A DNA stretch of 64,000 nt, from NCBI GenBank assembly GCA_030632085.1, contig DAOVJY010000002.1, forward strand, positions 13,325 to 77,324, given 5' to 3'. Of the stretch, positions 8,689-47,024 are shown in pieces. Both the position numbers and the translations under genes were made by a program. The notes beneath the pieces were generated by a model. That model worked only from the letters and a program-made list of their open reading frames with translations. It made no database searches and was not told the origin of the DNA. This DNA comes from Candidatus Omnitrophota bacterium. GTDB taxonomy: Bacteria > Omnitrophota > Gorgyraeia > JAGLLT01. Numbering within the stretch: position 1 is the stretch's first letter; each line of letters starts with the position of its first letter.

Positions 8689-8695
8689 GAAGCTG

Positions 8696-8723
8696 GATTA
8701 AGAATTAAGGATTAAGGATTAAG
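8696..8723 (+). repeat. tandem heptad repeat (G/A)ATTAAG x4
   Basis: gattaag aattaag gattaag gattaag sits directly after the guaA stop. The same module recurs at 39310-39337. Confidence 0.8.
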
Positions 8724-22473: not shown

Positions 22474-23388
22474 ATGAATAATAATAAAACTTCAAATAAT
22501 TTTTACGCTTTAGGCAAGCGCGGGGCCTGGGTAGGTATAATCGGCAATGTTTTCTTATCTTTTATTAAAATTCTAGCCGGTATCTTAGGTAAAAGTTATA
22601 GCCTTGTTTCCGACGGACTTCATTCTTTATCCGACATTACCTCATCTTTAGCTGTTTTATTTGGGATGATTGTAGCCGCTAAGCCTAAGGACAAAAGGCA
22701 TCCATACGGCCACGGCAAAGCTGAGTCAATTACTTCACTTACAATGGCGGTTATGTTAATCATTTTTGGTTTAATGCTCGGCTATAAAGTTATTTTTTCA
22801 TATTTTAGGAGTGCAATATTTATAGAACCCGCTTCTTATACACTCTGGATAGCTGTTTTTTCGGTTGTGGCGAAGGAAACTATGTATCGTTATAAGATAT
22901 GTTTGGGAAAGAGAATAAAAAGTACTTCTTTAATTGCTGATGCCTGGCATCATAGATCAGATGCTTTTTCTTCAGCTGTAGTTGTTATAGCTTTAGTGCT
23001 TACAATTTATGGTGGCGAAAGATGGGCCTTTATGGACCGACTGGGAGCTTTGATTGTCTCCGTCATGATTTTATATATAGGCATTAAAATATATCTAAGA
23101 GCTTCCTCGGAACTTATGGATGAAAGTGTTGACCTTGAGATAAAAAGAGAAGTTAAAAAACTTGCTTCAACTATTAAAGAAGTAAAGTATATAGAAACGC
23201 TTTTAGTTAGAAAGGCGGGATTAGATTTTTTAGTTGATATACATATAGAGGTTGACGCTAATCTCAATGTTTTAGAATCCCACGGTATTGCCAAGCTGGT
23301 AAAAAGTAAAATACTGCAAGAAATGCCGCGAGTAAAATCTGTTTTGGTCCATGTTGAGCCATACGAAGCAAAAGGAGGTAAGAAATGA
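22474..23388 (+). CDS. cation diffusion facilitator family transporter
   Basis: 304 aa. Six TM segments with HSLSD and ADAWHHRSD metal-site motifs and a C-terminal cytoplasmic domain. Confidence 0.88.
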   Translation: MNNNKTSNNFYALGKRGAWVGIIGNVFLSFIKILAGILGKSYSLVSDGLHSLSDITSSLAVLFGMIVAAKPKDKRHPYGHGKAESITSLTMAVMLIIFGLMLGYKVIFSYFRSAIFIEPASYTLWIAVFSVVAKETMYRYKICLGKRIKSTSLIADAWHHRSDAFSSAVVVIALVLTIYGGERWAFMDRLGALIVSVMILYIGIKIYLRASSELMDESVDLEIKREVKKLASTIKEVKYIETLLVRKAGLDFLVDIHIEVDANLNVLESHGIAKLVKSKILQEMPRVKSVLVHVEPYEAKGGKK

Positions 23389-23774: not shown

Positions 23775-23803
23775 TTGACGGAACTGCTATCTTCGTGTAT
23801 TAT
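23775..23803 (+). promoter_or_regulatory. sigma70-like promoter upstream of the fur-family gene
   Basis: TTGACG, 17 nt, TATTAT. The AT-rich tattattgttaatgg segment overlaps it and is a possible weak Fur-box-like site. Confidence 0.35.
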
Positions 23804-23839
23804 TGTTAATGGAAGTCATTTTCAATAAGGAGATTATTT

Positions 23840-24286
23840 ATGCGTGGGCATGGCAGATGGTTTCATGGAAGAATTAGAGGGTGCGGTTATCGCTTGACGC
23901 TTCCCCGGATGAAAATAATTGAGGTGTTGAATTCATCAAACGGCCATTTAAGCGCTGAAGACGTATTTGTGAAGGTTCACCGGATATATCCGGCTGTAGG
24001 TTTGACAACAGTTTATAGAACGCTGGAAATGTTGGTTGCTTCCGGCATTGTTGTTAAAATAGACGCGGGTGATGGTAAAGCGCGTTATAAGTTTAAAAAA
24101 ACTCTCGAAGAAGAGCCTCATTTTCACTTAATATGTAAAAAGTGCGGCAATATCATTGATGTTAAAGCTGATAAAGAGTTGGAAAAGAATATTCATAGGG
24201 CAAAAGAGGAATATATAAAAAGATATAGATTTAAAGTGGATAATCCGCAACTCCGTTTTTATGGATATTGCGAAAGTTGTAAATAA
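23840..24286 (+). CDS. fur: Fur-family metalloregulator (Fur/Zur/PerR)
   Basis: 148 aa. RLTLPRMKIIEVL...HLSAEDVF...GLTTVYRTLEMLVASGIV is the Fur DNA-binding domain. HFHLICKKCGNIIDV and the C-terminal CESCK are the structural Zn sites. Confidence 0.85.
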   Translation: MRGHGRWFHGRIRGCGYRLTLPRMKIIEVLNSSNGHLSAEDVFVKVHRIYPAVGLTTVYRTLEMLVASGIVVKIDAGDGKARYKFKKTLEEEPHFHLICKKCGNIIDVKADKELEKNIHRAKEEYIKRYRFKVDNPQLRFYGYCESCK

Positions 24287-24301
24287 GAAGGAGGTTTAGT
24301 T

Positions 24302-24634
24302 ATGCCAAGAGGAGATGGAACAGGCCCTAATAATCAGGGTCCGATGACAGGGAGAGGAATGGGTTATTGTGCCGGTTATGCAGTTCCGGGTTATGGTCAG
24401 GGCAGAGGCATGGGTTTAGGCCGTGGTTTTAGAGGTAGATTTTTTAGGGGAGCAATGCCCTATGGAGGCAGAGGCTGGGGTTATAATGCCTGGGTAGATA
24501 CTCCCTATGGCCCTATGATGCAGGCTTCCGCTAATCCTACGCCTGAAGAAGAAAAGGTCTTTTTAAAAGATCAGGCTAAAATGATGGAAGACGAACTAAA
24601 AGCCATAAAACAGCGTTTGTCTGAAATTAAATAA
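24302..24634 (+). CDS. DUF5320-like Gly/Arg/aromatic-rich protein
   Basis: 110 aa. MPRGDGTGPNNQGPMTGRGMGYCAGYAVPGYGQGRG..., with a C-terminal coiled-coil-like segment (EEEKVFLKDQAKMMEDELKAIKQRLSEIK). Confidence 0.6.
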   Translation: MPRGDGTGPNNQGPMTGRGMGYCAGYAVPGYGQGRGMGLGRGFRGRFFRGAMPYGGRGWGYNAWVDTPYGPMMQASANPTPEEEKVFLKDQAKMMEDELKAIKQRLSEIK

Positions 24635-24662
24635 GGCTTTTAATTTAAAGTGGAGAAAAGTT

Positions 24663-25052
24663 ATGAAAACAGTTATTTCAACTGAAGATGGGCAGGTTGC
24701 TGAGCATTTTGGCCGCTGCCCGCAGTTTACTGTTATAGAGTATACTGAGGGTAAATTGATTAAAGAAGAGGTGATTGCTAATCCCGGCCATCATCCGGGA
24801 TATCTACCGGCTTTTTTTAAAAAAATGCAGGTAGATAGTATTATCTGCGGCGGGATGGGCCAAAGAGCTAAAATGCTTTTTGATGAAGCTCAGATAAAAA
24901 CTATTACCGGAATAAGCGGGAGTATTAAAGAAGCAACGGATAGGCTCCTTAAAGGTGAGCTGAAACCATTAGATAATGTTTGTGATCCCGGAGCCGGTAA
25001 AGGCTACGGTGTGGAAAAAACTGAGTGTGAGCATGAAGAGTCGGGGGAATAA
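24663..25052 (+). CDS. NifX/NafY-like dinitrogenase FeMo-cofactor family (DUF134, PF02579) protein
   Basis: 129 aa. MKTVISTEDGQVAEHFGRCPQFTVIEY is the typical N-terminus of PF02579 proteins. Confidence 0.75.
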   Translation: MKTVISTEDGQVAEHFGRCPQFTVIEYTEGKLIKEEVIANPGHHPGYLPAFFKKMQVDSIICGGMGQRAKMLFDEAQIKTITGISGSIKEATDRLLKGELKPLDNVCDPGAGKGYGVEKTECEHEESGE

Positions 25053-25087
25053 AGGGAAGGAAGTTAATTCGGGCAAATAAATTTAAT

Positions 25088-25191
25088 ATCCCGCATTTCG
25101 CTAAAGCTCAAAGTTGCGGGATTTAATTCGGCCATATGATTTATGAGCACTATAGTTCCATAAATCATGGCCTCATTAAAGGAGGAGAAAG
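25088..25191 (+). promoter_or_regulatory. conserved 5' leader module (hairpins, TTAATTC, anti-SD CCTC-ATTAAAGGAGG)
   Basis: Hairpin atcccgca-N19-tgcgggat (25088-25122). ttaattc at 25123-29. Hairpin atgatttatg...cataaatcat (25136-25168). ggcctcattaaaggagg (25169-85) in which CCTC can pair with the SD GAGG. ATG at 25192. Confidence 0.5.
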
Positions 25192-25566
25192 ATGAAAGTA
25201 TGCTTAAGTTCTACGGGTGATAATTTAGATGCCCAAATAGATACACGCTTCGGCCGCTGCCGTTATTTTCTTTTTATCGACACTGATGGCATGGAAGTTG
25301 AGGCGATGGATAATGCTAATATTGCCTCGGCAGGCGGAGCCGGCATCAGGTCAGCCCAGTTGGTAGCTGATAAAGGGGCAGAAGTTCTTATAACCGGTAA
25401 TGTAGGCCCTAACGCCTTTGATGTTTTAAGTGCCGCCGGTATTAAAATTTATAGCGGCGCATCCGGCAGCATTAAAGACGCTTTAGAAAAATTGAAAACA
25501 GGTGGATTGAATGAGACCGGCGGCCCGGATGTAGGAAGTAAATTTGGTTTCGGAGGCGGCAAGTAA
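25192..25566 (+). CDS. second NifX/NafY-like DUF134 (PF02579) protein
   Basis: 124 aa. MKVCLSSTGDNLDAQIDTRFGRCRYFLFIDTDG, with a Gly-rich tail. Confidence 0.75.
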   Translation: MKVCLSSTGDNLDAQIDTRFGRCRYFLFIDTDGMEVEAMDNANIASAGGAGIRSAQLVADKGAEVLITGNVGPNAFDVLSAAGIKIYSGASGSIKDALEKLKTGGLNETGGPDVGSKFGFGGGK

Positions 25567-26169
25567 TTGGATATCAAAGCTGAAGAAAACCATAAGCGAT
25601 ATTTAGAAAGACTGGAGAAATCCAGGAGTTTTGGTTACGACCATTTAAAAATTCGCCATGGGATATTAAAAGAAGTACTGCCTTTAAAAGGAGTTATCGC
25701 AGACGTTGGTGCCGGCAAAGGCCATATGAGTCTGGCTTTAGCCAGCGCCGGTTATAATATTGACAGTATTGATATATCTTCTGAAGAACAGGAATTTGCT
25801 AAATTAAATTTGGCTTATTATAGGGTAATCGAGAGGGTAAAATTTCACATTGCTGATGCTGTGAACCTTTTTTATAAAGATAATTCTGTTGATTATATCT
25901 TCTGTGTTTGTGTAATGCACCATATTCAAAATTATAAAAAAGTAATTAATGAATTTTTTAGAATTATAAAACCAAAAGGAAAAATAATTATATCTGATTT
26001 TTCCATTAAGGGCCTGGAGCTTATCGCTCAAATGCATCAATCAGAAAATAGAGTTCACGAAACTACTATCGATAGCTTGAAGGTTGTTGAAGATTATTTA
26101 AATGAACAAAATAAACAGTTTAAGAAATTAAATCAGGATCATCAAGATACTTTAATAATTACTTCTTAA
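25567..26169 (+). CDS. class I SAM-dependent methyltransferase
   Basis: 200 aa. ADVGAGKGHMSLALASAG (motif I) and VDYIFCVCVMHH (motif II/III). Apparent TTG start. Confidence 0.7.
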   Translation: MDIKAEENHKRYLERLEKSRSFGYDHLKIRHGILKEVLPLKGVIADVGAGKGHMSLALASAGYNIDSIDISSEEQEFAKLNLAYYRVIERVKFHIADAVNLFYKDNSVDYIFCVCVMHHIQNYKKVINEFFRIIKPKGKIIISDFSIKGLELIAQMHQSENRVHETTIDSLKVVEDYLNEQNKQFKKLNQDHQDTLIITS

Positions 26170-26196
26170 GAAAAATATTATAAGGAGGCGATTTAA

Positions 26197-26427
26197 ATGC
26201 CATTTGGAGACGGTACAGGGCCAGGAGGCCAGGGAGCAGGTAGAGGAAGAGGAGCAGGTAGAGGCGGCGGTAGAGGCCGTATGGGTGGTAACAAGCCCGG
26301 CGCGGGGCCGAGCGGATATTGTGTCTGCCCAAATTCTAAATGTGATGGTAAACTTGTTCATCAAGCGGGTATACCATGTTATGAACTAACTTGTCCTAAA
26401 TGCGGGGCACGCATGGTAAGAGGATAA
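26197..26427 (+). CDS. DUF5320-like Gly/Arg-rich protein with C-terminal zinc ribbon
   Basis: 76 aa. MPFGDGTGPGGQGAGRGRGAGRGGGRGR... followed by CVCPNSKC...CPKCG. Confidence 0.5.
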   Translation: MPFGDGTGPGGQGAGRGRGAGRGGGRGRMGGNKPGAGPSGYCVCPNSKCDGKLVHQAGIPCYELTCPKCGARMVRG

Positions 26428-26671
26428 TTTCCGGGACTAAATCTTCGGAATTTCACAGCGTGAAATTCCAGAGGGTCTGACAATTTTGCGACTCTCGGCG
26501 GAATTAATTCATCCTGCCATTATGGAACTCATTAAGGAAATCAATAGACTCCTCGCTTAAATAAAGGTAAATTTTCTTCGACAATTTACCTTTAAGCTTC
26601 GGAGTTAATTCTGGTCTATCATTTACAACAATGAAGTTGGTGTAAATGATGCCCTCATTAAGGAGAGGTAA
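26428..26671 (+). promoter_or_regulatory. long structured leader: degenerate module copy, then palindrome AAAGGTAAATT-N9-AATTTACCTTT, TTAATTC, hairpin and anti-SD/SD
   Basis: Perfect palindrome GGAATTTCAC-AGC-GTGAAATTCC at 26445-26467. 11-bp perfect inverted repeat at 26563-26593 (spacer ttcttcgac). ttaattc at 26605-11. Hairpin 26618-26650. gccctcattaaggag at 26651-65. ATG at 26672. Confidence 0.5.
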
Positions 26672-28015
26672 ATGAAAAAGACGGATGTTTTGGTTGTTGG
26701 AGGAGGCCCGGCTGGCATTATAAGCGCGGTTACAGCCCGCAGGTATTATCCGGAAAAGGAAGTCAAACTGATTAAATCGGTAGATAAAGGAGTTATTCCC
26801 TGCGCCATACCTTATATGTTTTACAGTTTGAAAAGTCTTAAAGAAAATGCCCAGGGCAACGCGCCTCTTGAAAAGAATAATGTTGAAGTAATAGTTGATG
26901 AAGTTACAAAAATATCACCTGATAAAAAGTGTGTTACAACTAAAAAGGGAGAAGAGTATCAGTATGACAAGTTAATAATGGCGATGGGTTCAGAGCCCGT
27001 TATTCCTCCTATCTCCGGAGCGGACAAAGAGAACGTCTTTGCTATCTATAAAGATATGGAATACTTAGAAAAGCTTGCTGAGAAAATAAAAGGGTTTGAG
27101 AATGTGCTTATTGTGGGGGGAGGATTTATCGGAATAGAGTTTGCTGATGAACTGTCCTGCCGTAAAGAGTTTAACGTATCTTTAGTAGAGATGCTGCCTT
27201 CTATTTTGAGCCAGTCTTTTGATGCTGAATTTTCTGCTCCAGTCAAGGAAAGGCTGGAAAAAAAGGGCGTGAAGCTGTTAACAGGTGTAGTTTTAGAGGA
27301 AATTTTGGGTGAAGAAAAAGTTGAGGGAGTTAGATTATCAGGTAATAAAAAAATAGACGTAGATTGCGTTATTTTTGGTATTGGGGCTTCGCCCAACACT
27401 AAAGTAGCTCAGGAAGCTGGAATAGTTATAAATAAAGGCAAGGGAGTATGGGTTGATGAGTATATGAGGACGTCAGAGCCGGATATTTTTGCCGTTGGCG
27501 ACTGTGCCGGCAAAAGAGATTTCTTTACCCGTAAGGGGACGGCGATTTTACTTGCCTCAACAGCTACGGCAGAAGCTAGAATCGCGGGCGCCAGCTTATA
27601 TAAGTTAAAGTTGATTAGGGAGAATAAAGGGACCATTGCCATTTATTCCACCCGTATTGACGGCCTGGTTTTAGGGTCGGCGGGGATGACTGAAGATAGC
27701 GCTAAGAAGGAAGGGTTTGAAGTTGTAACCGGCCTGGTAGAAGGTGTTGATAAACATCCCGGGACTATGCCCGAGGCAAGCAAACTAATGGTTAAGCTTA
27801 TCTTTTCAAAGCAGTCGGGAATTATTTTGGGAGGACAGGTTGCCGGAGGTATGAGCTGCGGTGAGCTGATAAATGTTATCGGGGTTGCTATACAGCAAAG
27901 AGTTTCCTTGAATGAATTTGAAACTTTGCAGATGGCTACTCATCCATGTCTGACCGCGGCTCCCACAAAATATCCTTTAATCATCGCGGCCCAGAATGCT
28001 TCAAGTAAGATGTAA
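26672..28015 (+). CDS. FAD-dependent pyridine nucleotide-disulfide oxidoreductase, NADH oxidase/CoA-disulfide reductase family
   Basis: 447 aa. VLVVGGGPAGI FAD motif, redox Cys in GVIPCAIPY (the Nox/CoADR SxxxC-xxPY region), a second Rossmann fold VLIVGGGFIGIEFA, and GDCAG. Confidence 0.85.
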   Translation: MKKTDVLVVGGGPAGIISAVTARRYYPEKEVKLIKSVDKGVIPCAIPYMFYSLKSLKENAQGNAPLEKNNVEVIVDEVTKISPDKKCVTTKKGEEYQYDKLIMAMGSEPVIPPISGADKENVFAIYKDMEYLEKLAEKIKGFENVLIVGGGFIGIEFADELSCRKEFNVSLVEMLPSILSQSFDAEFSAPVKERLEKKGVKLLTGVVLEEILGEEKVEGVRLSGNKKIDVDCVIFGIGASPNTKVAQEAGIVINKGKGVWVDEYMRTSEPDIFAVGDCAGKRDFFTRKGTAILLASTATAEARIAGASLYKLKLIRENKGTIAIYSTRIDGLVLGSAGMTEDSAKKEGFEVVTGLVEGVDKHPGTMPEASKLMVKLIFSKQSGIILGGQVAGGMSCGELINVIGVAIQQRVSLNEFETLQMATHPCLTAAPTKYPLIIAAQNASSKM

Positions 28016-28021
28016 GTATTT

Positions 28022-29917
28022 TTGCGGCAGAAAATAGAGAGAATTATAAGAAAGCGCCGGATGATTAAGGCCGGTGTGGATAGGAAAGCGTTTATGAATA
28101 TTGCAATTTCAAGCGGCAAAGGCGGCACAGGTAAGACTTTTGTCGCTACCAATTTGGCTATTGTTCTAAAGAAACAGGATAATAAAGTTGCCTATCTGGA
28201 TTGTGACGTTGAAGAGCCCAACGGACATCTTTTTTTAAAGCCGGCAGTAATTACGGCTAAAGATATTCACATTACAGCACCGGCTGGCGTTGATAAAGAG
28301 AAATGCGATAACTGTAAAAAATGTGTTTCTGCCTGCGCCTTTAACGCCATTGCTTCGATTAAAGATAAAATTCTTTTTTTCAGGCAGTTATGTCATGCCT
28401 GCGGCGCTTGCCGAATAGCCTGCCCCAAAGACGCTATTATTTATGAAGAAAGAAAAATAGGTGTTTTAAATTCAGGAACCGCGGATAAAATAAATATTAT
28501 CTATGGGGAACTTCAGACGGGTGAAGGGGCTATGACTCCCCGGTTAATCAGTGAAGTTAAAAAACATATAAATTCTCAGGCCATTAATTTAATTGATACG
28601 GCTCCCGGCACATCCTGCCCCGTGGTTGAAGCTATTTCCGGTATGGATTTAGTGGTTTTAGTTACTGATCCGACTCCATTTGGAGTTAATGATCTTAAGC
28701 TCTCAGTAGATATGTGCCGTATGGTAGGCCATGAGCCTGTAGTTTTGGTCAATAGGGCTGATTATAAAAATAATGATTTAATTGAATATTGCGAAAAAGC
28801 TCAGCTTGATATTATTGGTGAGATACCGGATGACAGGCAGGTGGCTGAACTATATTCTGAGGGCAAGATGGCTGTCAAGTATTTAAAGGCCTATGATGAC
28901 CTATTTTCAAAGATAGGTGAAGAGATTATCCAAAGGGCGTTAAATAAAAAAATACCAAAAGTTTTAAAGAATCCGCAAAAGAGTAGTTTTACAAATAAAC
29001 TTAGCGCCATACCGGCCCAGGCAGAACCCATCCGAAGCAGATATGATGAAATTATAATTATCAGCGGCAAAGGCGGCACCGGCAAAACAACCATAGCCGG
29101 TGGTTTTGCCAGCTTAAGCAAAAACGCGCTTATAACTGATTGTGACGTTGACGCGGCAGACCTGCATATTCTTTTATCTCCTGAGATAAAAGAGGGATAT
29201 CTATTTTCAGGCGGTAAAAAAGCGGCAATTGATCAGGAGAAGTGTACTGCTTGCGGCAGATGTTATGAAGAGTGTCGTTTTGGTGCCGTTAAAAAAGAAG
29301 GCAGCGGTTTTATAATTGATCCTTTAAAATGTGAAGGCTGTAATACCTGTTCTTTGGTTTGTCCTCAAGATGCCATAAAATTAGAAGAGGCGGTTAACGG
29401 AGAGCTTTATGTTTCCGAAAGCCGTTTTGGTCCTATGGTGCACGCTAAACTCTACGCGGCTGAAGAAAATTCAGGTAAATTAGTCAGTCTTATCAGGCAG
29501 ATGGCCAGAGACAAAGTTGCAAATGTTTCCACCGCTATTTCTCTCAATGACGGCGCGCCCGGAACCGGTTGTCCGGTAATTGCCTCAATTAGCGGCGCGG
29601 ATTACGCGGTTGTGGTTACAGAGCCGACGGTTTCCGGAATTCATGATGCCGGCAGAGTTTTTGAACTCTGTACTTTTTTTAATATCAAGGCAGGTTTAAT
29701 TGTAAATAAGAGTGATATAAATTTAAACAAGGCTGAAGAATTGAAAGCTATAGCTTTGAAATCCAATGTGGACTTTTTAGGTATGGTGCCTTATGATAAA
29801 AGTACAACAGAGGCTCAAATGTTAAATAAAAGCGTAATTGAATATGATCAGGAATGCCCGGCGTCAAAACGCATTAGAGATATTTGGCAGGATTTAATTG
29901 AGAAGGTGAAAGTATGA
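28022..29917 (+). CDS. tandem-duplicated MinD/Mrp-type P-loop ATPase with inserted 2x[4Fe-4S] ferredoxin domains (COG1149-like)
   Basis: Two modules, each with a deviant Walker A (AISSGKGGTGKT, IIISGKGGTGKTT) and two CxxCxxCxxxCP ferredoxin motifs. The true start is probably Met-25 (MNIAISS at 28094). Confidence 0.8.
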   Translation: MRQKIERIIRKRRMIKAGVDRKAFMNIAISSGKGGTGKTFVATNLAIVLKKQDNKVAYLDCDVEEPNGHLFLKPAVITAKDIHITAPAGVDKEKCDNCKKCVSACAFNAIASIKDKILFFRQLCHACGACRIACPKDAIIYEERKIGVLNSGTADKINIIYGELQTGEGAMTPRLISEVKKHINSQAINLIDTAPGTSCPVVEAISGMDLVVLVTDPTPFGVNDLKLSVDMCRMVGHEPVVLVNRADYKNNDLIEYCEKAQLDIIGEIPDDRQVAELYSEGKMAVKYLKAYDDLFSKIGEEIIQRALNKKIPKVLKNPQKSSFTNKLSAIPAQAEPIRSRYDEIIIISGKGGTGKTTIAGGFASLSKNALITDCDVDAADLHILLSPEIKEGYLFSGGKKAAIDQEKCTACGRCYEECRFGAVKKEGSGFIIDPLKCEGCNTCSLVCPQDAIKLEEAVNGELYVSESRFGPMVHAKLYAAEENSGKLVSLIRQMARDKVANVSTAISLNDGAPGTGCPVIASISGADYAVVVTEPTVSGIHDAGRVFELCTFFNIKAGLIVNKSDINLNKAEELKAIALKSNVDFLGMVPYDKSTTEAQMLNKSVIEYDQECPASKRIRDIWQDLIEKVKV

Positions 29918-30768
29918 AAACCAATACTCATTGCATTCCATGTTTTTTAAGGCAGGCCAATGAAACCCTGGATAGAATTAGTGTTCCTGAAAACAAAAAA
30001 AGAGAAATCCTAAAAGCTGTCTCAGATGCTATTTTTAAAGTCCCCTTCGAGAAAAGTCCGCCGCATGTTGCCAGGAAGGTATATGAGGTTATAAGTGAAT
30101 TAACAGGCATTGAAGACGCCTATAAAAAAGAAAAAAAGCATGCCAATGAACTGGTTTTAAAGCTTTATCCTGAATTAAAAAAGAGAATAAATAATTCCGG
30201 CAACCCTCTATTTGAAGCTGTTCGCTTAGCGGCCATTGGAAATATAATAGACTTAGGCGTTAAATCAACTTTCAACCTGGAAGAAGAGTTAAAAGAAGAT
30301 TCAAATACAGAGTTTAAAATTTTTGACTTTGAAATATTTAAAGATAAATTAAGCAAAGCTAAAAATATTCTCTATATAGCTGATAATACCGGTGAAATTG
30401 TTTTTGATAAACTTCTAATTGAAGAGATCAAAAAACCGGTAACTATTGCCGTGCGGGGAAAACCTATAATCAACGACGCTACTTTGGAAGATGCTCTTAA
30501 TTGCGGCTTGGATAAAGTGGCTCATGTTATTTCCAGTGGTTCTGACGGCCCGGCTGCCATATTGGACAGTTGTAGCCGGGAATTTTTGGATATATTTGAT
30601 AAAGCCGATTTTATTATAAGCAAAGGACAGGGTAATTTTGAAGAATTATGCGATAGAGATGAACCCATTTTTTTTATTTTTAAAGCTAAATGCCCGGCTG
30701 TGGCCGATGATTTGCGAGTTAATGTAGGTGATATGATATTAAGTTACAAAACCCACCGGAAAAAATGA
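29914..30768 (+). CDS. DUF89 (ARMT1-like damage-control phosphatase) family protein
   Basis: 284 aa. N-terminal CIPCFLRQ motif and the DUF89 core. Confidence 0.7.
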   Translation: MKTNTHCIPCFLRQANETLDRISVPENKKREILKAVSDAIFKVPFEKSPPHVARKVYEVISELTGIEDAYKKEKKHANELVLKLYPELKKRINNSGNPLFEAVRLAAIGNIIDLGVKSTFNLEEELKEDSNTEFKIFDFEIFKDKLSKAKNILYIADNTGEIVFDKLLIEEIKKPVTIAVRGKPIINDATLEDALNCGLDKVAHVISSGSDGPAAILDSCSREFLDIFDKADFIISKGQGNFEELCDRDEPIFFIFKAKCPAVADDLRVNVGDMILSYKTHRKK

Positions 30769-31481
30769 AAATCAGAATTATAGCTGATAACTATACGCAG
30801 GATAGTAGATTTAAAGAGTGCTGGGGATTCTCAGTGCTTATAAATGATGATATTTTATTTGATACGGCTGATAGTGCTGAAACTTTTCTATATAACGCGA
30901 AACAGTTAGATGTTGACCTTTCAGCCATAAAAAAAGTAGTTATTTCACATGACCACTGGGATCATATTGGTGGGTTGGAATCTTTATTTAAAAAAAATCC
31001 TAACGTTGAACTTTATGGTTTAAAGGATTTTTCCGAAGATTTCAAAAATTTAGCCGATAAATATAACATAAAATTAATTGAATGTGAAGATTTTAAGGAA
31101 ATTGATCCAGGCGCTTATGTAAGCGGTTCATTTAAAACTATATATAAACAGAAAAAGCTTGTTGAACAAGCACTAATATTAAAAACTGTAAAAGGCCTTA
31201 TAATCATATTAGGTTGTTCCCACCCGGGAGTAGTTGAGATGGTAGAGGTTATAAAGAAGCATTTCAATGAGAAAATATACTACGTTATGGGAGGATATCA
31301 TTTAGGCTCAAAAACAGAGAATGAAATTGAAAATATAGCGTTAAAGCTGCAAAAACTGGGTGTTAATAAAGTTGCTCCTACACATTGTACGGGCCAAAAG
31401 GCAATTGATATTTTTAGTAAAATGTATAGCGATAATTTTTTACGCCTTAAAACAGGCCTGGAAATTGAATTTGATTTTTAA
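30765..31481 (+). CDS. MBL-fold metallo-hydrolase (COG1237-like)
   Basis: 238 aa. VISHDHWDHIGG metal-binding motif and GCSHPG. Confidence 0.75.
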   Translation: MKIRIIADNYTQDSRFKECWGFSVLINDDILFDTADSAETFLYNAKQLDVDLSAIKKVVISHDHWDHIGGLESLFKKNPNVELYGLKDFSEDFKNLADKYNIKLIECEDFKEIDPGAYVSGSFKTIYKQKKLVEQALILKTVKGLIIILGCSHPGVVEMVEVIKKHFNEKIYYVMGGYHLGSKTENEIENIALKLQKLGVNKVAPTHCTGQKAIDIFSKMYSDNFLRLKTGLEIEFDF

Positions 31482-31496
31482 GTGAAGACACAACTT

Positions 31497-31625
31497 ATAG
31501 AGCGGGAGCGAACATAAGTTGTATGTCTGAACTTACCCCGCAACTTTCTATTTCGGAGAAGTTCTTCGTAGCAAAAAAGTGCGGGGTTTAATTCGCACAG
31601 AAACTTACGCTCACTTTGTTTCGTA
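31497..31625 (+). promoter_or_regulatory. hairpin-rich intergenic region (three stable stem-loops), a candidate structured RNA or regulatory region
   Basis: agacacaacttat...ataagttgtatgtct (about 14 bp stem). ccccgca-N34-tgcgggg followed by tttaattcg (same architecture as 25088-25129). aaacttacg...cgtaagttt. Confidence 0.3.
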
Positions 31626-31689
31626 AGTTTAGCGCTCATTTAAAAAATAGCTTGAAATAACCCCCTATTTCTGTAACAATGTACTCTAA

Positions 31690-34879: not shown

Positions 34880-35074
34880 TTGTGGGTGGCAGTATCAGCT
34901 GATGTCTTAAAAGGTAAGAAATGTACTTGTTTTTTTGCGATTAAAGATGATGTTATAAATGCCGGGGCTACATATCTGGATGAAGAGGTTGTTGTAGATG
35001 GTAATTTAATTTCATCCCGCAAACCTGAAGATTTGCCCGCTTTCTTAAGGGCTATTATTGATAAATTATCTTAA
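34880..35074 (+). pseudogene. DJ-1/PfpI family C-terminal fragment
   Basis: 64 aa. VLKGKKCTCFFAIKDDVINAGATYLDEEVVVDGNLISSRKPEDLPAF matches only the last third of DJ-1/PfpI. The N-terminal about 100 aa, including the nucleophile Cys, is missing, and the fragment starts with TTG. Confidence 0.6.
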
Positions 35075-39283: not shown

Positions 39284-39500
39284 TAGCTAAGAGCAAAGGG
39301 CAAACACAGGATTAAGGATTAAGAATTAAGGATTAAGTAAAAAACAAGATACAAAAAACAAGTACAAAGTCACAAGACACAAGTTGTAAGTCACATGACA
39401 TAAGTCACAAGTAAAAAACAAAAACAAAAGAACAAAAAGATAAGACACAAGAAATAAGTTATAAGTCATACCCTTTCGGGCACAGGCAAGACACAGGTCA
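39232..39500 (+). repeat. modular A/C-rich intergenic repeat locus 2 (modules D, A heptads, B decamers, C A/C tracts, D)
   Basis: agtcataccctttcgggcacaggcaag at 39232-58 (inside the PFOR 3' end) and again at 39464-90. Heptads gattaag/aattaag at 39310-37. aagtcacaag / aagacacaag decamers. caaaaacaaaagaacaaaaaga tracts. Almost T-free on the + strand. Confidence 0.8.
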
Positions 39501-39526: not shown

Positions 39527-39649
39527 CTTGCTTAAACAAAGGTAAATTCTCTTTGACAATTTACCTTTAAGCTTCGGGATTAATTCGGGCTTATCATTTA
39601 CGACAGCGAAGCTGACGTAAATGATGCCCTCATTAAGAGGAGGGTTTGT
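39527..39649 (+). promoter_or_regulatory. conserved cis-module copy 2: palindrome AAAGGTAAATT-N9-AATTTACCTTT, TTAATTC, hairpin, anti-SD/SD
   Basis: Inverted repeat at 39538-39568 with spacer ctctttgac (contains TTGACA). ttaattc at 39580-86. Hairpin 39593-39625 with compensatory changes relative to copy 1. gccctcattaagaggagg. ATG at 39650. Confidence 0.55.
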
Positions 39650-39838
39650 ATGAAAGCTGTAGTAATTAAAGATTTATGTACCGGTTGCGGCCTTTGTGTC
39701 AGCACCTGTCCTGATGTTTTTGAAATGGTTGGTGATGTAGCGGAAGTTAAAGGAGATGTTGTACCTGAAGCCGCCGAGGATACCGCGAAAGAGGCTACTC
39801 AGAATTGTCCTGTAGAGGCCATAACCATCGAAGAATAG
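39650..39838 (+). CDS. fdx: 4Fe-4S ferredoxin (single-cluster type)
   Basis: 62 aa. CTGCGLCVSTCP plus the distal Cys in NCPVEA. Confidence 0.85.
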   Translation: MKAVVIKDLCTGCGLCVSTCPDVFEMVGDVAEVKGDVVPEAAEDTAKEATQNCPVEAITIEE

Positions 39839-40183: not shown

Positions 40184-41311
40184 ATGATAAAACCAAATCC
40201 TTTTACTCCGCAGTCGGGCTGGGAACCGAGATTTTTTGGAGGCCGGGAGGAAGAGCTGAATTTTTTTGAAAAGGTACTCTCTCAAAGCATAAGAGACCAG
40301 GCCAATCATGTGGTCATTTTAGGAGAGTGGGGTACGGGAAAGACCTCACTATCTAAACAACTGAAGAAGATAGCTCAATCTCAGGGGTACCCGACGGCTT
40401 TTTGTCCTTTAAGTAACATAAGTTCCAAGTCGGCCTTAAAAGACACTATCAACCTTATAGCTCAGGAGATGCTTCTAGGCCTTCCTAAGGACTCAACAGC
40501 CATAGGTATGGAAAACATTTTAAATGAGTTAGGTAAATTACAGCCACAGGTTAAGTTTACTAAGTTTTTGGTAAATTTATGGCAAGTCATAGAAGCTAAG
40601 ATGGCGGTGGTGTTTATTGATGATGTGCAGAATTTAGATATTAATTCCGGGGTTATTGATACCCTGCGTTCTGTTTTAAGCAGGGATGAAGTAATAAAAA
40701 GTACTAATTATTTGTTTGTTTTATTGTCAACGCCCAGGGGCTGGCAGGATTTTATAGATAAACATAATCCGGTAGGCCGTTTTTTTAGAAAAAGAATATA
40801 TTTGGAGAACCTCAATCAGACGGAAACAAGTGAAATAATTGATAAAACATTAAATGAAACCGAAATTAGTTTCGGTGAAAACATTAAAAAGGATGTTTAT
40901 GATAATACTAAAGGACATCCTTATGAATTACAGCTTTTATGCAGTAATCTATATGATGATCAGCTCCAAGATACTATTACTAATGAGATTTTTAACAAGG
41001 CTTTAAAAAATACTTTACGGGAATTAGGTAAAGATTATTTTGAAGCTCTTTACAGAAGAGCGAGTGATAGAGAGAAAGAGGTCTTGTCTATTTTAGTGGA
41101 AAAAAATAAACCTCTTAGTATATCAGACATTCGCTCAATAATGATAATCGAGAAAAGAAAGGCCGGCTTTCCTATCGCGAATATTAAAAATTTTCTCTAT
41201 CGTCTCTACGAAAAAGAGATTATAAAAAGAAGAGATACGGGTGAGTTTGAAATAATAGATCCTATGTTTACTAAATACCTGGAGATTTTTGAATTGAAAA
41301 AAGGAGTATAA
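40184..41311 (+). CDS. AAA+ ATPase of the archaeal-ATPase (PF01637-like) family, orphan
   Basis: 375 aa. NPFTPQ...FFGGREEELNFF N-terminus, Walker A ILGEWGTGKTSL, Walker B VVFIDDVQNL, and a C-terminal winged-helix-like region. Confidence 0.65.
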   Translation: MIKPNPFTPQSGWEPRFFGGREEELNFFEKVLSQSIRDQANHVVILGEWGTGKTSLSKQLKKIAQSQGYPTAFCPLSNISSKSALKDTINLIAQEMLLGLPKDSTAIGMENILNELGKLQPQVKFTKFLVNLWQVIEAKMAVVFIDDVQNLDINSGVIDTLRSVLSRDEVIKSTNYLFVLLSTPRGWQDFIDKHNPVGRFFRKRIYLENLNQTETSEIIDKTLNETEISFGENIKKDVYDNTKGHPYELQLLCSNLYDDQLQDTITNEIFNKALKNTLRELGKDYFEALYRRASDREKEVLSILVEKNKPLSISDIRSIMIIEKRKAGFPIANIKNFLYRLYEKEIIKRRDTGEFEIIDPMFTKYLEIFELKKGV

Positions 41312-42546: not shown

Positions 42547-42667
42547 AAATAAGTCACAAAAGATAAGTCATAAGTCACATGACACAAGTCACAAGACAAA
42601 TAGCTAAGAGCAAAAAACAAAAGAACGAAAAACAAAAAACTAAAAAAAACAAGAAATTGAACTACTC
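42547..42667 (+). repeat. modular A/C-rich intergenic repeat locus 3
   Basis: aagtcacaaaagataagtcataagtcacatgacacaagtcacaagac, then aaatagctaagagc, then caaaaaacaaaagaacgaaaaacaaaaaactaaaaaaaacaag. Same modules and order as locus 2. Confidence 0.8.
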
Positions 42668-42760
42668 CTTGCTTAAACAAAGGTAAATTATCAAAGAGAA
42701 TTTACCTTTAAGCTTCGGAGTTAATTCTCCGCCTAAGGCGGATCATTAAGGAGTATAACA
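42668..42760 (+). promoter_or_regulatory. conserved cis-module copy 3 (palindrome with inverted spacer, TTAATTC, GC hairpin, ATCATTAAGGAG)
   Basis: aaaggtaaatt (42679-89), atcaaagag, aatttaccttt (42699-709). The spacer is the reverse complement of copy 2's. ttaattc at 42721-27. Hairpin tccgcctaaggcgga. tcattaaggag. ATG at 42761. Confidence 0.55.
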
Positions 42761-43921
42761 ATGGAATTTTCCAAAAGAGCGCAAGTCATAATGGCCTCTC
42801 CGACTTTAGCCATTACTTCCAAGGCTAAAAAAATGAAGGCGGATGGAGAAGATGTGGTAAATTTTGCCGCCGGGGAACCGTTTTTTGATACACCCGATCA
42901 AATCAAACAGGCAGCTATCGAGGCCATTCAAGAAGGTTTTACTAAATATACGCCGGCAGCCGGAGCACCATTTTTAAAGAGGGCTATTTGTCAGAAGTTT
43001 AGGAATGATAACGGTATTGATTATGATGAAAATCAAATTGTTGTTTCCTGCGGAGCTAAACATTCTTTGTTTAACATTATGGAAATTCTCTGCGATGAAA
43101 AGGATGAGGTTATTTTTTCCGCTCCTTACTGGGTAAGTTACCCGGAGATGGTAAGGTTTGCGGGGGGCCAACCCATAATAATAAAGACATTAGAAAAAAA
43201 CGATTTTAAATTTAAAGCGGATACCTTAAGAAAATATATTACTAATAAAACTAAAATACTTATTTTAAACAGTCCTTCCAACCCCACGGGAGCGATGTAT
43301 ACTCGAGACGAATTAGAGGAAATTGCCGAAGTGGCTGTAAAGAATAATCTTTATGTTATCAGTGATGAAATATATGAAAAGATAATTTATGGTAGCAAAA
43401 AACATGTTTCTATCGCTTCTTTAGGTAAGGACATTTATAAGCGAACTATTACGGTAAATGGTGTTTCAAAGACTTATTCTATGACAGGATGGCGTATTGG
43501 TTATTTAGGGGCACCTGAAGCTATAGCTTCCAAGATTAAGAATTTGCAGAGTCATTCAACTTCAAATCCCGCTTCTATCAGCCAGAAAGCGGCTTACGCG
43601 GCTTTAAGTTGTGATGAGTCTATAATCGGAAATATGGTTTCTGAATTTAATGTAAGGCGCAAGTTAATGGTTAAAGGCCTTAATTCGGTTAAGGGATTTT
43701 CATGTAAATCACCCGACGGGGCTTTTTATTGTTTTTGCAATACAAGAGAAACTAATATGAATTCTATGGATTTGGCTAATAAGCTTTTAAAGGAACAAAA
43801 AATAGCGGTTATTCCCGGTATAGCTTTTGGCCAGGAGTATTATTTAAGATTCAGTTTTTCGTGTGACACTGAACAGATTGAAAAAGGGATATCCAGATTG
43901 AGGGAGGCATTCGCGAGCTAA
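42761..43921 (+). CDS. aspC: aspartate/aromatic aminotransferase (class I PLP)
   Basis: 386 aa. Overall AAT-like similarity with PLP-Lys in the NGVSKTYSMTGWRIGY region and NSPSNPTG. Confidence 0.88.
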   Translation: MEFSKRAQVIMASPTLAITSKAKKMKADGEDVVNFAAGEPFFDTPDQIKQAAIEAIQEGFTKYTPAAGAPFLKRAICQKFRNDNGIDYDENQIVVSCGAKHSLFNIMEILCDEKDEVIFSAPYWVSYPEMVRFAGGQPIIIKTLEKNDFKFKADTLRKYITNKTKILILNSPSNPTGAMYTRDELEEIAEVAVKNNLYVISDEIYEKIIYGSKKHVSIASLGKDIYKRTITVNGVSKTYSMTGWRIGYLGAPEAIASKIKNLQSHSTSNPASISQKAAYAALSCDESIIGNMVSEFNVRRKLMVKGLNSVKGFSCKSPDGAFYCFCNTRETNMNSMDLANKLLKEQKIAVIPGIAFGQEYYLRFSFSCDTEQIEKGISRLREAFAS

Positions 43922-46758: not shown

Positions 46759-47024
46759 GGCTATCAGCTGGCAGCTAAACAAGTCACAAGTCATACCCTG
46801 GTGGGCACAGGCAAGACATAAGTCACAAGTAAAAAAATAAAAACAAACAAATAAGATGCAAGAAACAAGTGCAAAGTCATACCCTGGTGGGCACAGGCAA
46901 GACATAAGTCACAAGATAAATAGCTAAGAGCCAAGAGCTTAGAGCTAAGAGCAAAAAACAAAAACAAAAGAACAAAAAGACAAAAAGCTGAAGGCTAATA
47001 GCTGAAAGCAGAGAGCTGATAATT
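46759..47024 (+). repeat. modular A/C-rich intergenic repeat locus 4 with two identical 41-nt direct repeats
   Basis: agtcataccctggtgggcacaggcaagacataagtcacaag at 46789-46829 and again at 46875-46915 (100% identical). aaatagctaagagc. caaaaacaaaagaacaaaaaga. It runs up to the mdh ATG, with no palindrome or leader module. Confidence 0.85.

Follow-up and report, generated by a model that had tools for sequence, protein, structure and literature searches.

A 64-kb window of Candidatus Omnitrophota DNA carries ten open reading frames (ORFs) on the + strand between positions 23840 and 31481, and these form a real operon-like cluster that is conserved across many phyla of anaerobes. The cluster is headed by a gene for a Fur-family regulator and encodes two PF02579 proteins and a double P-loop ATPase with ferredoxin inserts. 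We favor the reading, to which we assign a probability of about 0.55, that it is a Fur-repressed operon for an extended machine of the orange-protein (ORP) type that holds and moves iron-sulfur (Fe-S), or metal-sulfide, species in an anaerobe. Strict anaerobes depend strongly on Fe-S proteins, and their Fe-S storage, traffic and repair are poorly known; we know of no Fe-S storage protein described other than IssA. The cluster brings the ORP complex, IssA and DUF5320 into one conserved genetic unit with a metal-sensor head and natural domain fusions, and its relatives number dozens, across Omnitrophota, Planctomycetota, Spirochaetota, Nitrospirota, Chloroflexota, Bacillota, Bacteroidota and archaea.

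A sequence-only reading of this DNA had described the ten genes as an uncharacterized metal or Fe-S module. All ten ORFs were recovered at the same positions, and the families it had named (Fur, two PF02579 proteins, methyltransferase, flavoprotein, double ATPase, DUF89 and the metallo-beta-lactamase-fold (MBL) protein) stand in Pfam and NCBIfam searches. The features are listed below.

23775-23803, + strand: sigma70-type promoter (-35 TTGACG at 23775-23780, 17-nt spacer, -10 TATTAT at 23798-23803)
23804-23824, + strand: predicted palindromic operator of Fur-box type, TGTTAATGGAAGTCATTTTCA, adjoining the -10 box and separated from the Fur ATG by 15 nt
23840-24286, + strand: Fur-family metalloregulator, 148 aa (PF01475, 104.6 bits)
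24302-24634, + strand: DUF5320 protein, 110 aa (PF17253, 93.5 bits)
24663-25052, + strand: PF02579 protein NifXa, 129 aa (73.5 bits)
25086-25191, + strand: two-hairpin repeat, copy 1 (fold z = -3.3)
25192-25566, + strand: PF02579 protein NifXb, 124 aa (90.9 bits)
25567-26169, + strand: class-I S-adenosylmethionine (SAM)-dependent methyltransferase, 200 aa, whose TTG start directly follows the NifXb stop codon (Methyltransf_31/11/25)
26197-26427, + strand: ZnR76, 76 aa, DUF5320-type N-terminus and Cys knuckle, without a Pfam match
26553-26671, + strand: two-hairpin repeat, copy 2, immediately upstream of the flavoprotein gene (fold z = -5.1, nhmmer 5e-32)
26672-28015, + strand: FAD flavoprotein resembling CoA-disulfide reductase (CoADR) and CoA-persulfide reductase, 447 aa (Pyr_redox_2, 213.5 bits; redox Cys44)
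28094-29917, + strand: fused Orp3-Orp4-like double P-loop ATPase (alternative starts 28076 and 28022)
29914-30768, + strand: DUF89/ARMT1-type metal-dependent phosphatase, 284 aa (PF01937, 240.7 bits), start overlapping the ATPase stop by 4 nt
30765-31481, + strand: COG1237-type MBL-fold protein, 238 aa (Lactamase_B), start overlapping the DUF89 stop by 4 nt
31535-31640, + strand: degenerate two-hairpin repeat after the last gene (fold z = -3.7)

Several details of the earlier description were revised. The ATPase, taken as 631 aa, likelier begins at ATG 28094 (607 aa, MNIAISSGKGG), as its homologues begin MxIAISSGKGG, or else at the annotated GTG 28076 (613 aa). One of the two supposed DUF5320 paralogs, that at 24302-24634, is indeed a DUF5320 protein; the other, ZnR76, has no Pfam match itself but has the N-terminal motif in common with the first. 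The window encodes no DUF134 protein, a name that had been loosely applied to the PF02579 proteins. The short or overlapping junctions exist at some genes, as 4-nt overlaps and an abutting start, and not at two intergenic gaps of 139 nt (25053-25191) and 244 nt (26428-26671). No convincing intrinsic terminator was found inside the cluster, counts being within shuffle levels.

The cluster in distant genomes

The two sister genomes (loci L002 and L004; ATPase identity 71-72%) are syntenic with the window over the whole region, from PEPCK to PFOR. This synteny, which includes unrelated genes, is uninformative, and distant loci were therefore surveyed with the ATPase as anchor. The survey comprised 80 loci, one genome per species, whose six-frame ORFs were searched with one-round profiles of the window proteins; the closest relatives, L005 and L020, are Candidatus Omnitrophota at 92-93% identity. 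Counts refer to 78 distant loci, many of them on short contigs, and to partners on the same strand within 5 kb of the ATPase.

PF02579 (NifX-like) proteins lie near the ATPase at 56 of the 78 loci, with two or more copies at 44, and DUF5320 proteins at 39. The MBL protein is present at 30 loci, the ZnR76 family at 25, the methyltransferase at 21, DUF89 at 19, the flavoprotein at 17 and Fur at 9. The window's other neighbors (TrkH, PIN_5, RNase HII and two unnamed proteins) were found near the ATPase at none of the 78. Comparison of match density within 5 kb with that at 5-10 kb from the ATPase gave ratios of 27 for DUF5320, 18 for MBL, 16 for the ZnR76 family, 10 for PF02579 and 6.4 for DUF89, with weak enrichment of the flavoprotein (2.9) and the methyltransferase (2.8). 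Fur matches numbered 9 in the inner zone and 0 in the outer, and a thioredoxin control gave a ratio of 1.0. All eight partner families occur together in L070 and L075, and nearly the whole arrangement is repeated in Omnitrophota (L061, L070, L072, L075), Planctomycetes (L029, L071), Spirochaetales (L006) and Bacillota (L035).

A reciprocal test anchored on ZnR76 relatives regained the cluster in four further lineages (L085-L088). It is Fur-headed in Aureabacteria (L086) and Thermodesulfovibrionales (Nitrospirota; L087) and headed by DUF134 in Dehalococcoidia (L085), and in Clostridia (L088) two PF02579 genes and a ZnR76 gene are consecutive with a DUF5320 gene nearby. The co-occurrence proposed in the sequence-only reading is thus borne out: the families recur together in distant loci and the flanking genes never do.

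The grouping could instead reflect no functional unit at all, being an artefact of reading a compact, unidirectional genome. Consistent with this, the genes of the 64-kb window are all on one strand, synteny with L002 and L004 spans the whole region including unrelated genes, and the two internal gaps are long and hairpin-rich. The recurrence of the families in dozens of phylogenetically distant loci, without the window's other neighbors, argues against such an artefact, as do the domain fusions that join several members (below) and the positive reciprocal test; we regard its probability as minimal. The coherence of the module, claimed earlier, is upheld by the enrichment of eight partner families, the reciprocal test and the fusions. 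Co-directionality, which had also been offered in its support, carries no weight, since each plausible gene in the window is on the + strand. GC skew is positive across the whole window (1-64000), which together with the gene orientation is consistent with a long leading-strand segment.

The ZnR76 and flavoprotein genes are missing from sister genomes L002 and L004. A lineage-specific insertion of 26170-28021, carried by the two-hairpin repeat, was considered as an explanation and ruled out: both genes adjoin the ATPase in L005, L020 and many distant loci. As nearer relatives and distant loci have both, they were lost in the sisters rather than inserted here.

The ATPase, the PF02579 proteins and their partners

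The ATPase has more than 2,000 homologues, and fusion of the two units is common among them; at most of the other loci each unit has a gene of its own, next to that of the other. In Pfam searches the chain matches CbiA/ParA twice and Fer4 four times, and each half carries a 2x[4Fe-4S] ferredoxin insert. The deviant Walker A motif SGKGGTGKT of both halves and the 16 ferredoxin cysteines are invariant in 57 homologues, as are four further cysteines, C43 and C356 in DCDV and C181 and C499 in PGTxCPV. An AlphaFold (AF2) model was obtained at pLDDT 90.4 and pTM 0.90, in which each half resembles MinD, FleN, NifH, Cfd1 and ApbC at TM 0.6-0.7. No solved structure covering the whole chain was found; only MinD and ferredoxin pieces were matched.

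These features lead to the ORP complex, which has been under study since 2011. Its named genes in Desulfovibrio vulgaris Hildenborough are Orp3/DVU2103, Orp4/DVU2104, Orp5/DVU2105, Orp8/DVU2108 and Orp9, or MrpORP/DVU2109. Orp3 and Orp4 resemble MinD and each have two [4Fe-4S] motifs, Orp5 and Orp8 belong to PF02579, and MrpORP, an Mrp/NBP35-PF02579 fusion, transfers Fe-S clusters to Orp3, Orp4 and Orp8, which co-purify; the orange protein holds a non-covalent S2MoS2CuS2MoS2 cluster (PMC6345978). The cluster described here shares with this complex two MinD-like P-loop units with two [4Fe-4S] motifs each, single-domain PF02579 proteins including one of ORP type (NifXb, 6e-19 against 2WFB), a domain of the MrpORP C-terminal type (NifXa) and an occurrence in anaerobes only. 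It differs in that both ATPases are fused in one chain, that it is one unidirectional unit rather than two divergent operons, and that it has a Fur-type regulator and sigma70-type promoter in place of sigma54, the activator OrpR and IHF. The conserved DUF5320, ZnR76, CoADR-like flavoprotein, DUF89, MBL and methyltransferase are additional to it, absent from the ORP accounts examined. Judged by its domain content, the core of the cluster is the Desulfovibrio ORP complex, with its two ferredoxin-inserted MinD-like ATPases and its PF02579 proteins. The conserved gene adjacency and the domain fusions (below) are indirect signs that the products may associate physically.

In Desulfovibrio (L040, 8661-11734) and Maridesulfovibrio (L042, 8612-11719), DUF89 divergently adjoins a COG1149 ATPase pair without PF02579 neighbors. 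The DUF89-ATPase link thus persists outside the full cluster.

The MinD-like fold raises the alternative, originally put forward for the ORP complex, of a spatial regulator acting in cell division or positioning with the other genes as accessories. The ORP complex has been called 'putatively involved in cell division' and MrpORP is found at a cell pole (PMC6345978), and each ATPase half is structurally closest to MinD, FleN and FlhG. MinC/MinE, FtsZ or flagellar partners, however, occur in no neighborhood; the 2x[4Fe-4S] inserts and invariant extra cysteines of both halves are not known from positioning ATPases; and the recurring partners are metallocluster-binding and redox proteins under a metal-sensor head. 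We give a positioning role only a slight chance.

Homologous clusters supply further evidence for Fe-S handling. Nine of them encode Mrp-PF02579 proteins, and the two tested, from L018 and L083, score 535 and 557 bits against the 450-bit cut-off of the NCBIfam MrpORP equivalog; NifU_N and Mrp/ApbC genes lie inside clusters L085 and L087. In published proteomics of Methanococcus voltae grown on pyrite, the IssA-like Mvol_0689 and Mvol_0693 and the Fe-S 'cobyrinic acid a,c-diamide synthase' proteins Mvol_0691 and Mvol_0692 were up 2.3-5x, with thioferrate-like electron paramagnetic resonance signals and signs of perceived Fe(II) limitation. The authors of that study did not treat the four proteins as one unit, and only the PF02579 ones were named as storage candidates. 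As in the window, PF02579 proteins at Mvol_0689-Mvol_0693 accompany two Fe-S-motif CbiA-family ATPases, which in M. voltae they flank; the cluster differs in being archaeal and in that the iron regulator discussed there is DtxR. The presence of MrpORP, NifU_N and Mrp/ApbC in homologous clusters and the co-induction of the homologous M. voltae cluster strengthen the Fe-S reading.

The same PF02579 proteins could instead bind Mo/W-S or Mo-Cu-S clusters and serve in thiometallate buffering, detoxification or cofactor supply. NifXb is close to the carrier of the S2MoS2CuS2MoS2 cluster, PF02579 is the NifX/NafY FeMo-cofactor-binding fold, and a cation-diffusion-facilitator (CDF) efflux gene lies just upstream of the cluster (22474-23388) and adjoins it in two other loci. 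Against these points, neither molybdate/tungstate transport nor molybdopterin genes were recurrent in the 82 neighborhoods examined, the recurring neighbors being NifU_N, Mrp/ApbC, ferredoxin and radical SAM genes; the head regulator is of Fur type and not ModE type; and MrpORP and Orp3/Orp4 are Fe-S proteins (PMC6345978). A thiometallate function is, in our estimate, unlikely.

Returning to Fe-S handling, the two PF02579 proteins are of distinct types. NifXa is homologous, as a protein of its own, to the C-terminal (Di-Nase) domain of MrpORP and has the motifs EHFGRC, GHHPG and CDP; it matches only model positions 265-364 of the MrpORP equivalog NF041136 (1.4e-24, 87 bits against the 450-bit cut-off), and its solved relatives are TM1816 and PH0822. 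NifXb is of the ORP/Orp8/MTH1175/TM1290 (IssA-core) type, with MTH1175 (1EO1, 1.1e-21), TM1290 (8e-21) and the D. gigas orange protein (2WFB) as solved relatives.

The DUF5320 protein, at 93.5 bits against a PF17253 gathering threshold of 27 bits, consists of an N-terminus MPRGDGTGP..GPMTGRGMGYCAG, a cationic middle rich in Gly, Arg and aromatic residues, and a C-terminal coiled coil. The family comprises at least 5,949 protein clusters, none functionally named, and this N-terminus is conserved in 50 ORFs. ZnR76 joins an MPFGDGTGP N-terminus through a Gly/Arg linker to a CxCPxC..H..PC..CPxCG knuckle; its family includes at least 941 clusters with an MPxGDGTGP N-terminus, a minority of which reach the DUF5320 threshold, and 31 ORFs in the surveyed loci.

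Both families invite comparison with IssA. IssA of Pyrococcus furiosus (PF2025) combines a PF02579 domain with a C-terminal tail that is cationic, aromatic and rich in glycine; this tail has been proposed to wrap around anionic thioferrate (PMC5524996). The window shares with it the PF02579/IPR003731 globular domain, NifXb being closest to MTH1175, the template for modelling IssA's domain, and a cationic, aromatic, glycine-rich disordered segment of matching composition in an iron- and sulfur-related context. Median values for the DUF5320 middle region are G 0.29, R+K 0.13, aromatic 0.17 and pI 10.9, compared with G 0.21, cationic 0.10, aromatic 0.20 and pI 10.7 for the IssA tail. In the window, however, the tail-like segment is on separate polypeptides, DUF5320 and ZnR76, which carry MPxGDGTGP and a coiled coil or Cys knuckle that descriptions of IssA do not include. 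Neither PF02579 protein of the window has an IssA-like tail of its own: NifXb ends in about 20 residues, GGPDVGSKFGFGGGK, and the end of NifXa is acidic and contains Cys. IssA also forms homomeric particles without partner proteins, whereas here the ATPase and other partners are conserved.

Fusions in other genomes, though not in the window, join these parts. PF02579-DUF5320 fusions that pass both Pfam thresholds occur in L029 and L083, the L083 protein also having a ferredoxin domain, and sequence inspection revealed a similar PF02579-tail-ferredoxin ORF in L038. In fusions from L027 and L043 a Gly/Arg linker connects PF02579 to the ZnR76 knuckle, and in Bacteroidales the knuckle is fused to DUF134. 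The PF02579-DUF5320 and PF02579-knuckle fusions and the IssA-tail-like composition point to a split-IssA-like Fe-S handling module and suggest that the small Gly/Arg-rich proteins may work with the PF02579 proteins as a split form of IssA. If so, thioferrate-like Fe-S storage would be far commoner than now thought.

Many clusters also have a gene for a ~57-60-aa 2x[4Fe-4S] ferredoxin between the second PF02579 gene and the ZnR76 gene (L070 1958-2137, L072 6628-6819, L029 5727-5903, L071 9158-9328, L086 7807-7974); the window's cluster is without it.

The flavoprotein is closest among solved structures to the CoA-persulfide reductase 8A56 (7e-50) and to archaeal CoADRs, including those of Pyrococcus. 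Its redox Cys, noted in the sequence-only reading, is Cys44, which aligns with the catalytic Cys of CoA-persulfide and CoA-disulfide reductases. With these enzymes and the NADH oxidases (8A56, 4FX9, 6PFZ) it shares the FAD/NAD(P)H two-dinucleotide-binding fold, dimerization domain and single redox Cys; it differs in the local motif, VIPCAIPY instead of SFANCGLPY, and in having no rhodanese domain, and it scores 236 bits against the 579-bit cut-off of the CoADR equivalog TIGR03385. Orthologues above 660 bits adjoin ATPases in 11 loci, and rhodanese-fused homologues occur in three other clusters (L027, L043, L049). Its nearness to CoA-persulfide reductase and the rhodanese-fused forms in other clusters argue for a role in sulfur chemistry.

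The methyltransferase is best matched in NCBIfam by the DVU_1556-family methyltransferase, below cut-off, and a methyltransferase gene directly adjoins and precedes the ATPase gene in 13 loci. DUF89 has PH1575 (2G8L, 2e-42) and AF1104 as solved relatives. Compared with the subfamily I damage-control phosphatases of DUF89, it passes PF01937 but scores 188.8 bits against the 440-bit cut-off of the NF040824 equivalog. The solved relatives of the MBL protein (7DCK at 3e-39, TM1679 and 2P4Z) are all uncharacterized and of COG1237 type.

Predicted control at the cluster head and a proposed mechanism

The promoter at 23775-23803, which had been recognized as sigma70-like in the sequence-only reading, has 10/12 consensus matches by scan. 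The same layout is constant upstream of orthologous Fur genes in several phyla: TTGACA, 17 nt, a TAtaaT -10 box, the palindrome TGATAATGGAAACCATTATCA, then AATAAGGAG and the start codon. The 19-bp core of this operator family consensus agrees with the classical Fur box, GATAATGATAATCATTATC, at 16/19 positions, with the arms GATAAT/ATTATC outermost and the same spacing. The operator at 23804-23824 is the sole site in the 64 kb above shuffle range (23.5 against a maximum of 18.4), and it remained first (19.6 against 16.3) when the matrix was rebuilt without this lineage. Two loci outside the training of the matrix, L086 and L087, were used for validation. In L086 one of the best sites precedes the Fur ATG by 15 nt and another falls between Fur and DUF5320; in L087 they lie before DUF5320 and before a CGGC-Fur gene pair. 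A search for a Fur/PerR box had been suggested both for 23775-23840 and in front of 26672; a site in the first is present, conserved and validated in these loci, while in front of 26672, before 25192 and elsewhere in the 64-kb window no second site exceeded the shuffle range. If the cluster is one transcript, its control would then lie at the head, with no comparable operator before 25192 or 26672. As the palindrome directly follows the -10 box, the Fur-type regulator could, through the predicted operator, block its own promoter and the genes downstream.

The regulator retains the Fur motifs HLSAED, HxH before LIC, C99xxC102 and C143xxC146 in alignments to 9IRE, 8J6W and 2W57, and its best solved relative is the Fur protein 9IRE (1.7e-23). 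Like autoregulated Fur-family repressors it has a FUR domain, structural Zn Cys pairs and HxH, and a 19-bp-type operator overlapping the promoter; it differs from them in an unusual N-terminal extension, in regulated genes that are not uptake genes and in its scores relative to the equivalog cut-offs. The best NCBIfam score is 113 bits against a cut-off of 220 bits for the Bacillus-type Fur, with PerR at 83 against 180.

In another reading, a PerR-like peroxide or redox sensor would control redox or oxidative-stress repair, the flavoprotein removing oxidants or re-reducing thiols and the ATPase and PF02579 proteins repairing oxygen-damaged Fe-S. The PerR box is TTATAAT-N-ATTATAA. The operator arms here are instead GATAAT/ATTATC at classical 19-bp Fur-box spacing, and the regulator scores higher for Fur than for PerR, although its second-best NCBIfam match is the clostridial PerR (2.1e-23) and PerR 2FE3 is a solved relative (1e-15). 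The flavoprotein does match NADH oxidases and peroxidases, but it is missing from many clusters including the sister genomes. In Desulfovibrio, OrpR switches the orp operons in response to redox potential (PMC8359166), a point in favor of stress repair; rubrerythrin, peroxiredoxin and superoxide reductase genes are, however, not recurrent in the neighborhoods, and thioredoxin shows no enrichment. Overall we consider stress repair rather unlikely.

Among the nine Fur-bearing distant loci, the Fur gene is in each case directly upstream of a gene for a protein with the DUF5320-type N-terminus, DUF5320 itself in eight and ZnR76 in L073. The Fur extension, MRGHGRWFHGRIRGCGYR in the window, follows a pattern (WFHGRIRGCGYR; ...W(W)HG(R/K)FRGCGYR) common to cluster-associated Fur proteins (window 23840-23900; L087 629-700; L070 153-225). 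It starts MPWRDGTGP in L087 and MPRRDGAGP in L070, like the DUF5320 N-terminus, which suggests that the regulator may share an interaction or sensing motif with the small proteins under its control.

In the Bacteroidales clusters L045 (8307-8957), L047 (167-793), L051 (5130-5732) and L059 (8303-8890) the head is DUF134 fused to a zinc ribbon and ZnR76-type knuckle, and in Dehalococcoidia it is a plain DUF134 (L085, 5757-6230). Since DUF134 heads these equivalent clusters, Fur and DUF134 seem to be interchangeable cluster heads. Immediately upstream of the Fur promoter stand the CDF efflux gene and an overlapping gene for a 121-aa membrane protein (through 23750); the other loci in which a CDF gene adjoins the cluster are L032 and L073. 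This neighbor may be a weak link to metal homeostasis.

Starting from what was observed, namely the neighborhood, the operator overlapping the promoter, the fusions and the ORP and MrpORP identities, we infer a mechanism for the favored Fe-S machine. Metal-bound Fur, the metal probably being Fe(II), would repress the unit, and expression would rise when the metal is scarce. The de-repressed PF02579 proteins would hold labile Fe-S material, an anionic polymer or clusters whose charge the cationic Gly/Arg/aromatic segments of DUF5320 and ZnR76 would neutralize, the role proposed for the tail of IssA. Through ATP-gated closure of the dimer, and with its ferredoxin clusters, the fused SIMIBI-type ATPase might load clusters, reduce them or pass them on, and its four extra invariant cysteines may form a bridging cluster. 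The CoADR-like flavoprotein could supply a reduced thiol or resolve CoA persulfide and so mobilize sulfur, and DUF89, MBL and the methyltransferase may process a small-molecule ligand.

A more speculative extension, which we put forward tentatively, is that DUF5320, ZnR76, the tail-less PF02579 proteins and the ferredoxin-inserted double ATPase constitute a widespread, anaerobe-specific, ATP-driven machine for Fe-S storage and mobilization, a multi-subunit 'split IssA'. The dedicated Fur paralogue, with its MPxRDGTGP-WWHGRFRGCGYR extension mimicking DUF5320, would read the loading state of this machine and not only free Fe(II), and CoA persulfide/thiol chemistry (CoADR-like flavoprotein, DUF89, CoaE neighbors) would give the sulfur or thiol ligand. 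Such a machine would unite the so far separate literatures on the ORP complex and on thioferrate.

A number of observations weigh against a Fur-repressed ORP-type Fe-S operon. The regulator falls below every NCBIfam Fur, PerR and Zur equivalog cut-off. IssA is induced under iron- and sulfide-replete conditions (PMC5524996), a poor fit to simple Fe(II)-Fur repression, and the likeness between DUF5320 and the IssA tail is one of composition, not homology. The ORP complex itself has been tied 'putatively' to cell division (PMC6345978), and with no Mrp/NBP35 ORF in the 64-kb window its known maturation partner is missing. Flavoprotein and methyltransferase are only weakly enriched near the ATPase, and the absence of flavoprotein and ZnR76 from the two sister genomes marks both as dispensable there. 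Finally, a single transcript would have to span the hairpin-rich 139-nt and 244-nt gaps.

The earlier view of a coherent metal or Fe-S module therefore survives in part, as a coherent and Fe-S-related unit that is not wholly new and that draws no support from the leader motif or co-directionality. Its core was already known as the ORP complex (PMC6345978) and its PF02579 proteins probably belong with the IssA/ORP group (PMC5524996), so that the claim of an undescribed module would hold only for the extension. In the searchable literature we found no description of a Fur head, DUF5320, ZnR76, CoADR-like flavoprotein, DUF89 or MBL in such a cluster, and searches of it on DUF5320, COG1149, PF02579 neighborhoods, COG1237/7DCK/TM1679 and DUF89 in this context returned nothing relevant. 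As far as this literature shows, three things had not been described before: the Fur head, the conserved extension and the link that fusions make between DUF5320 and PF02579/IssA.

Intergenic repeats and other features of the window

Both long gaps inside the cluster end alike, in hairpin 1, GGGAUUAAUUC, hairpin 2, UCAUUAAAGGAGG and AUG; in copy 1 (25086-25191) the series is hairpin 1, GGGAUUUAAUUC, hairpin 2, CCUCAUUAAAGGAGG and AUG. Fold z-scores of the repeat range from -3.3 to -5.8. Across nine copies, 96% of cells in hairpin 2 are paired and 7/14 pairs are changed on both sides, giving a covariation score of 0.63, compared with 0.20 in shuffled controls and no more than 0.13 when the partners are slid. 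Further copies lie before a ferredoxin gene (39528-39652) and before an aminotransferase gene (42663-42763), in addition to the degenerate copy after MBL, and copy 2 is 87% identical to 39530-39637. The sisters have copies at other junctions (L002 7849-7951, 8341-8405 and 8800-9010; L004 8063-8141, 8900-8996 and 21588-21674), one of those in L002 with hairpin 1 tandemly triplicated. The repeat was found in none of the 78 distant loci, and the window has no Rfam match at gathering thresholds.

The shared leader motif of the sequence-only reading is thus real and present in both gaps of the cluster, although it is not specific to the cluster. A cluster-specific riboswitch or operator was ruled out by the dispersed copies, the lack of an Rfam match, the absence from distant loci, the hairpin covariation and the lack of a Fur site. 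As the hairpin covaries, the leader is structural rather than a conserved protein operator, and as a dispersed lineage-specific repeat it gives no support for a shared regulon. We read it as a lineage-specific modular intergenic element acting at the RNA level, most likely as a 5' stabilizer or an intercistronic processing/translation cassette. The degenerate copy at 31535-31640 is a probable end of the transcription unit, and a promoter-like site follows downstream at 31652-31680.

Tandem arrays of seven-nucleotide units, (AAGTCAC)n, (GGATTAA)n, (CAAAAAA)n and (AGCTAAG)n, occupy intergenic DNA at 39344-39458, 42549-42598, 8695-8723, 39308-39337, 42611-42646 and 46922-46986. The tracts they form are A/C-rich and immediately precede two copies of the two-hairpin repeat.

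Two probable gene remnants were observed elsewhere in the window. The segment 39849-40183, flanked by the ferredoxin gene (39650-39838) and an AAA_16/ATPase_2 gene (40184-41311), reads as the first ~81 aa of a DsbD/CcdA-type membrane protein joined to the C-terminal end of a thioredoxin-like protein, and looks like a deletion or insertion remnant. Its L002 counterpart, right after the ferredoxin gene, is a DsbD_2 gene called at 238 aa, of which only the start is inside the fetched locus. At 34880-35074 a 64-aa ORF (62 aa as called in L001) covers only the C-terminal part of a DJ-1/PfpI protein; the gene is probably truncated, the sisters having a full 169-aa gene at this place.

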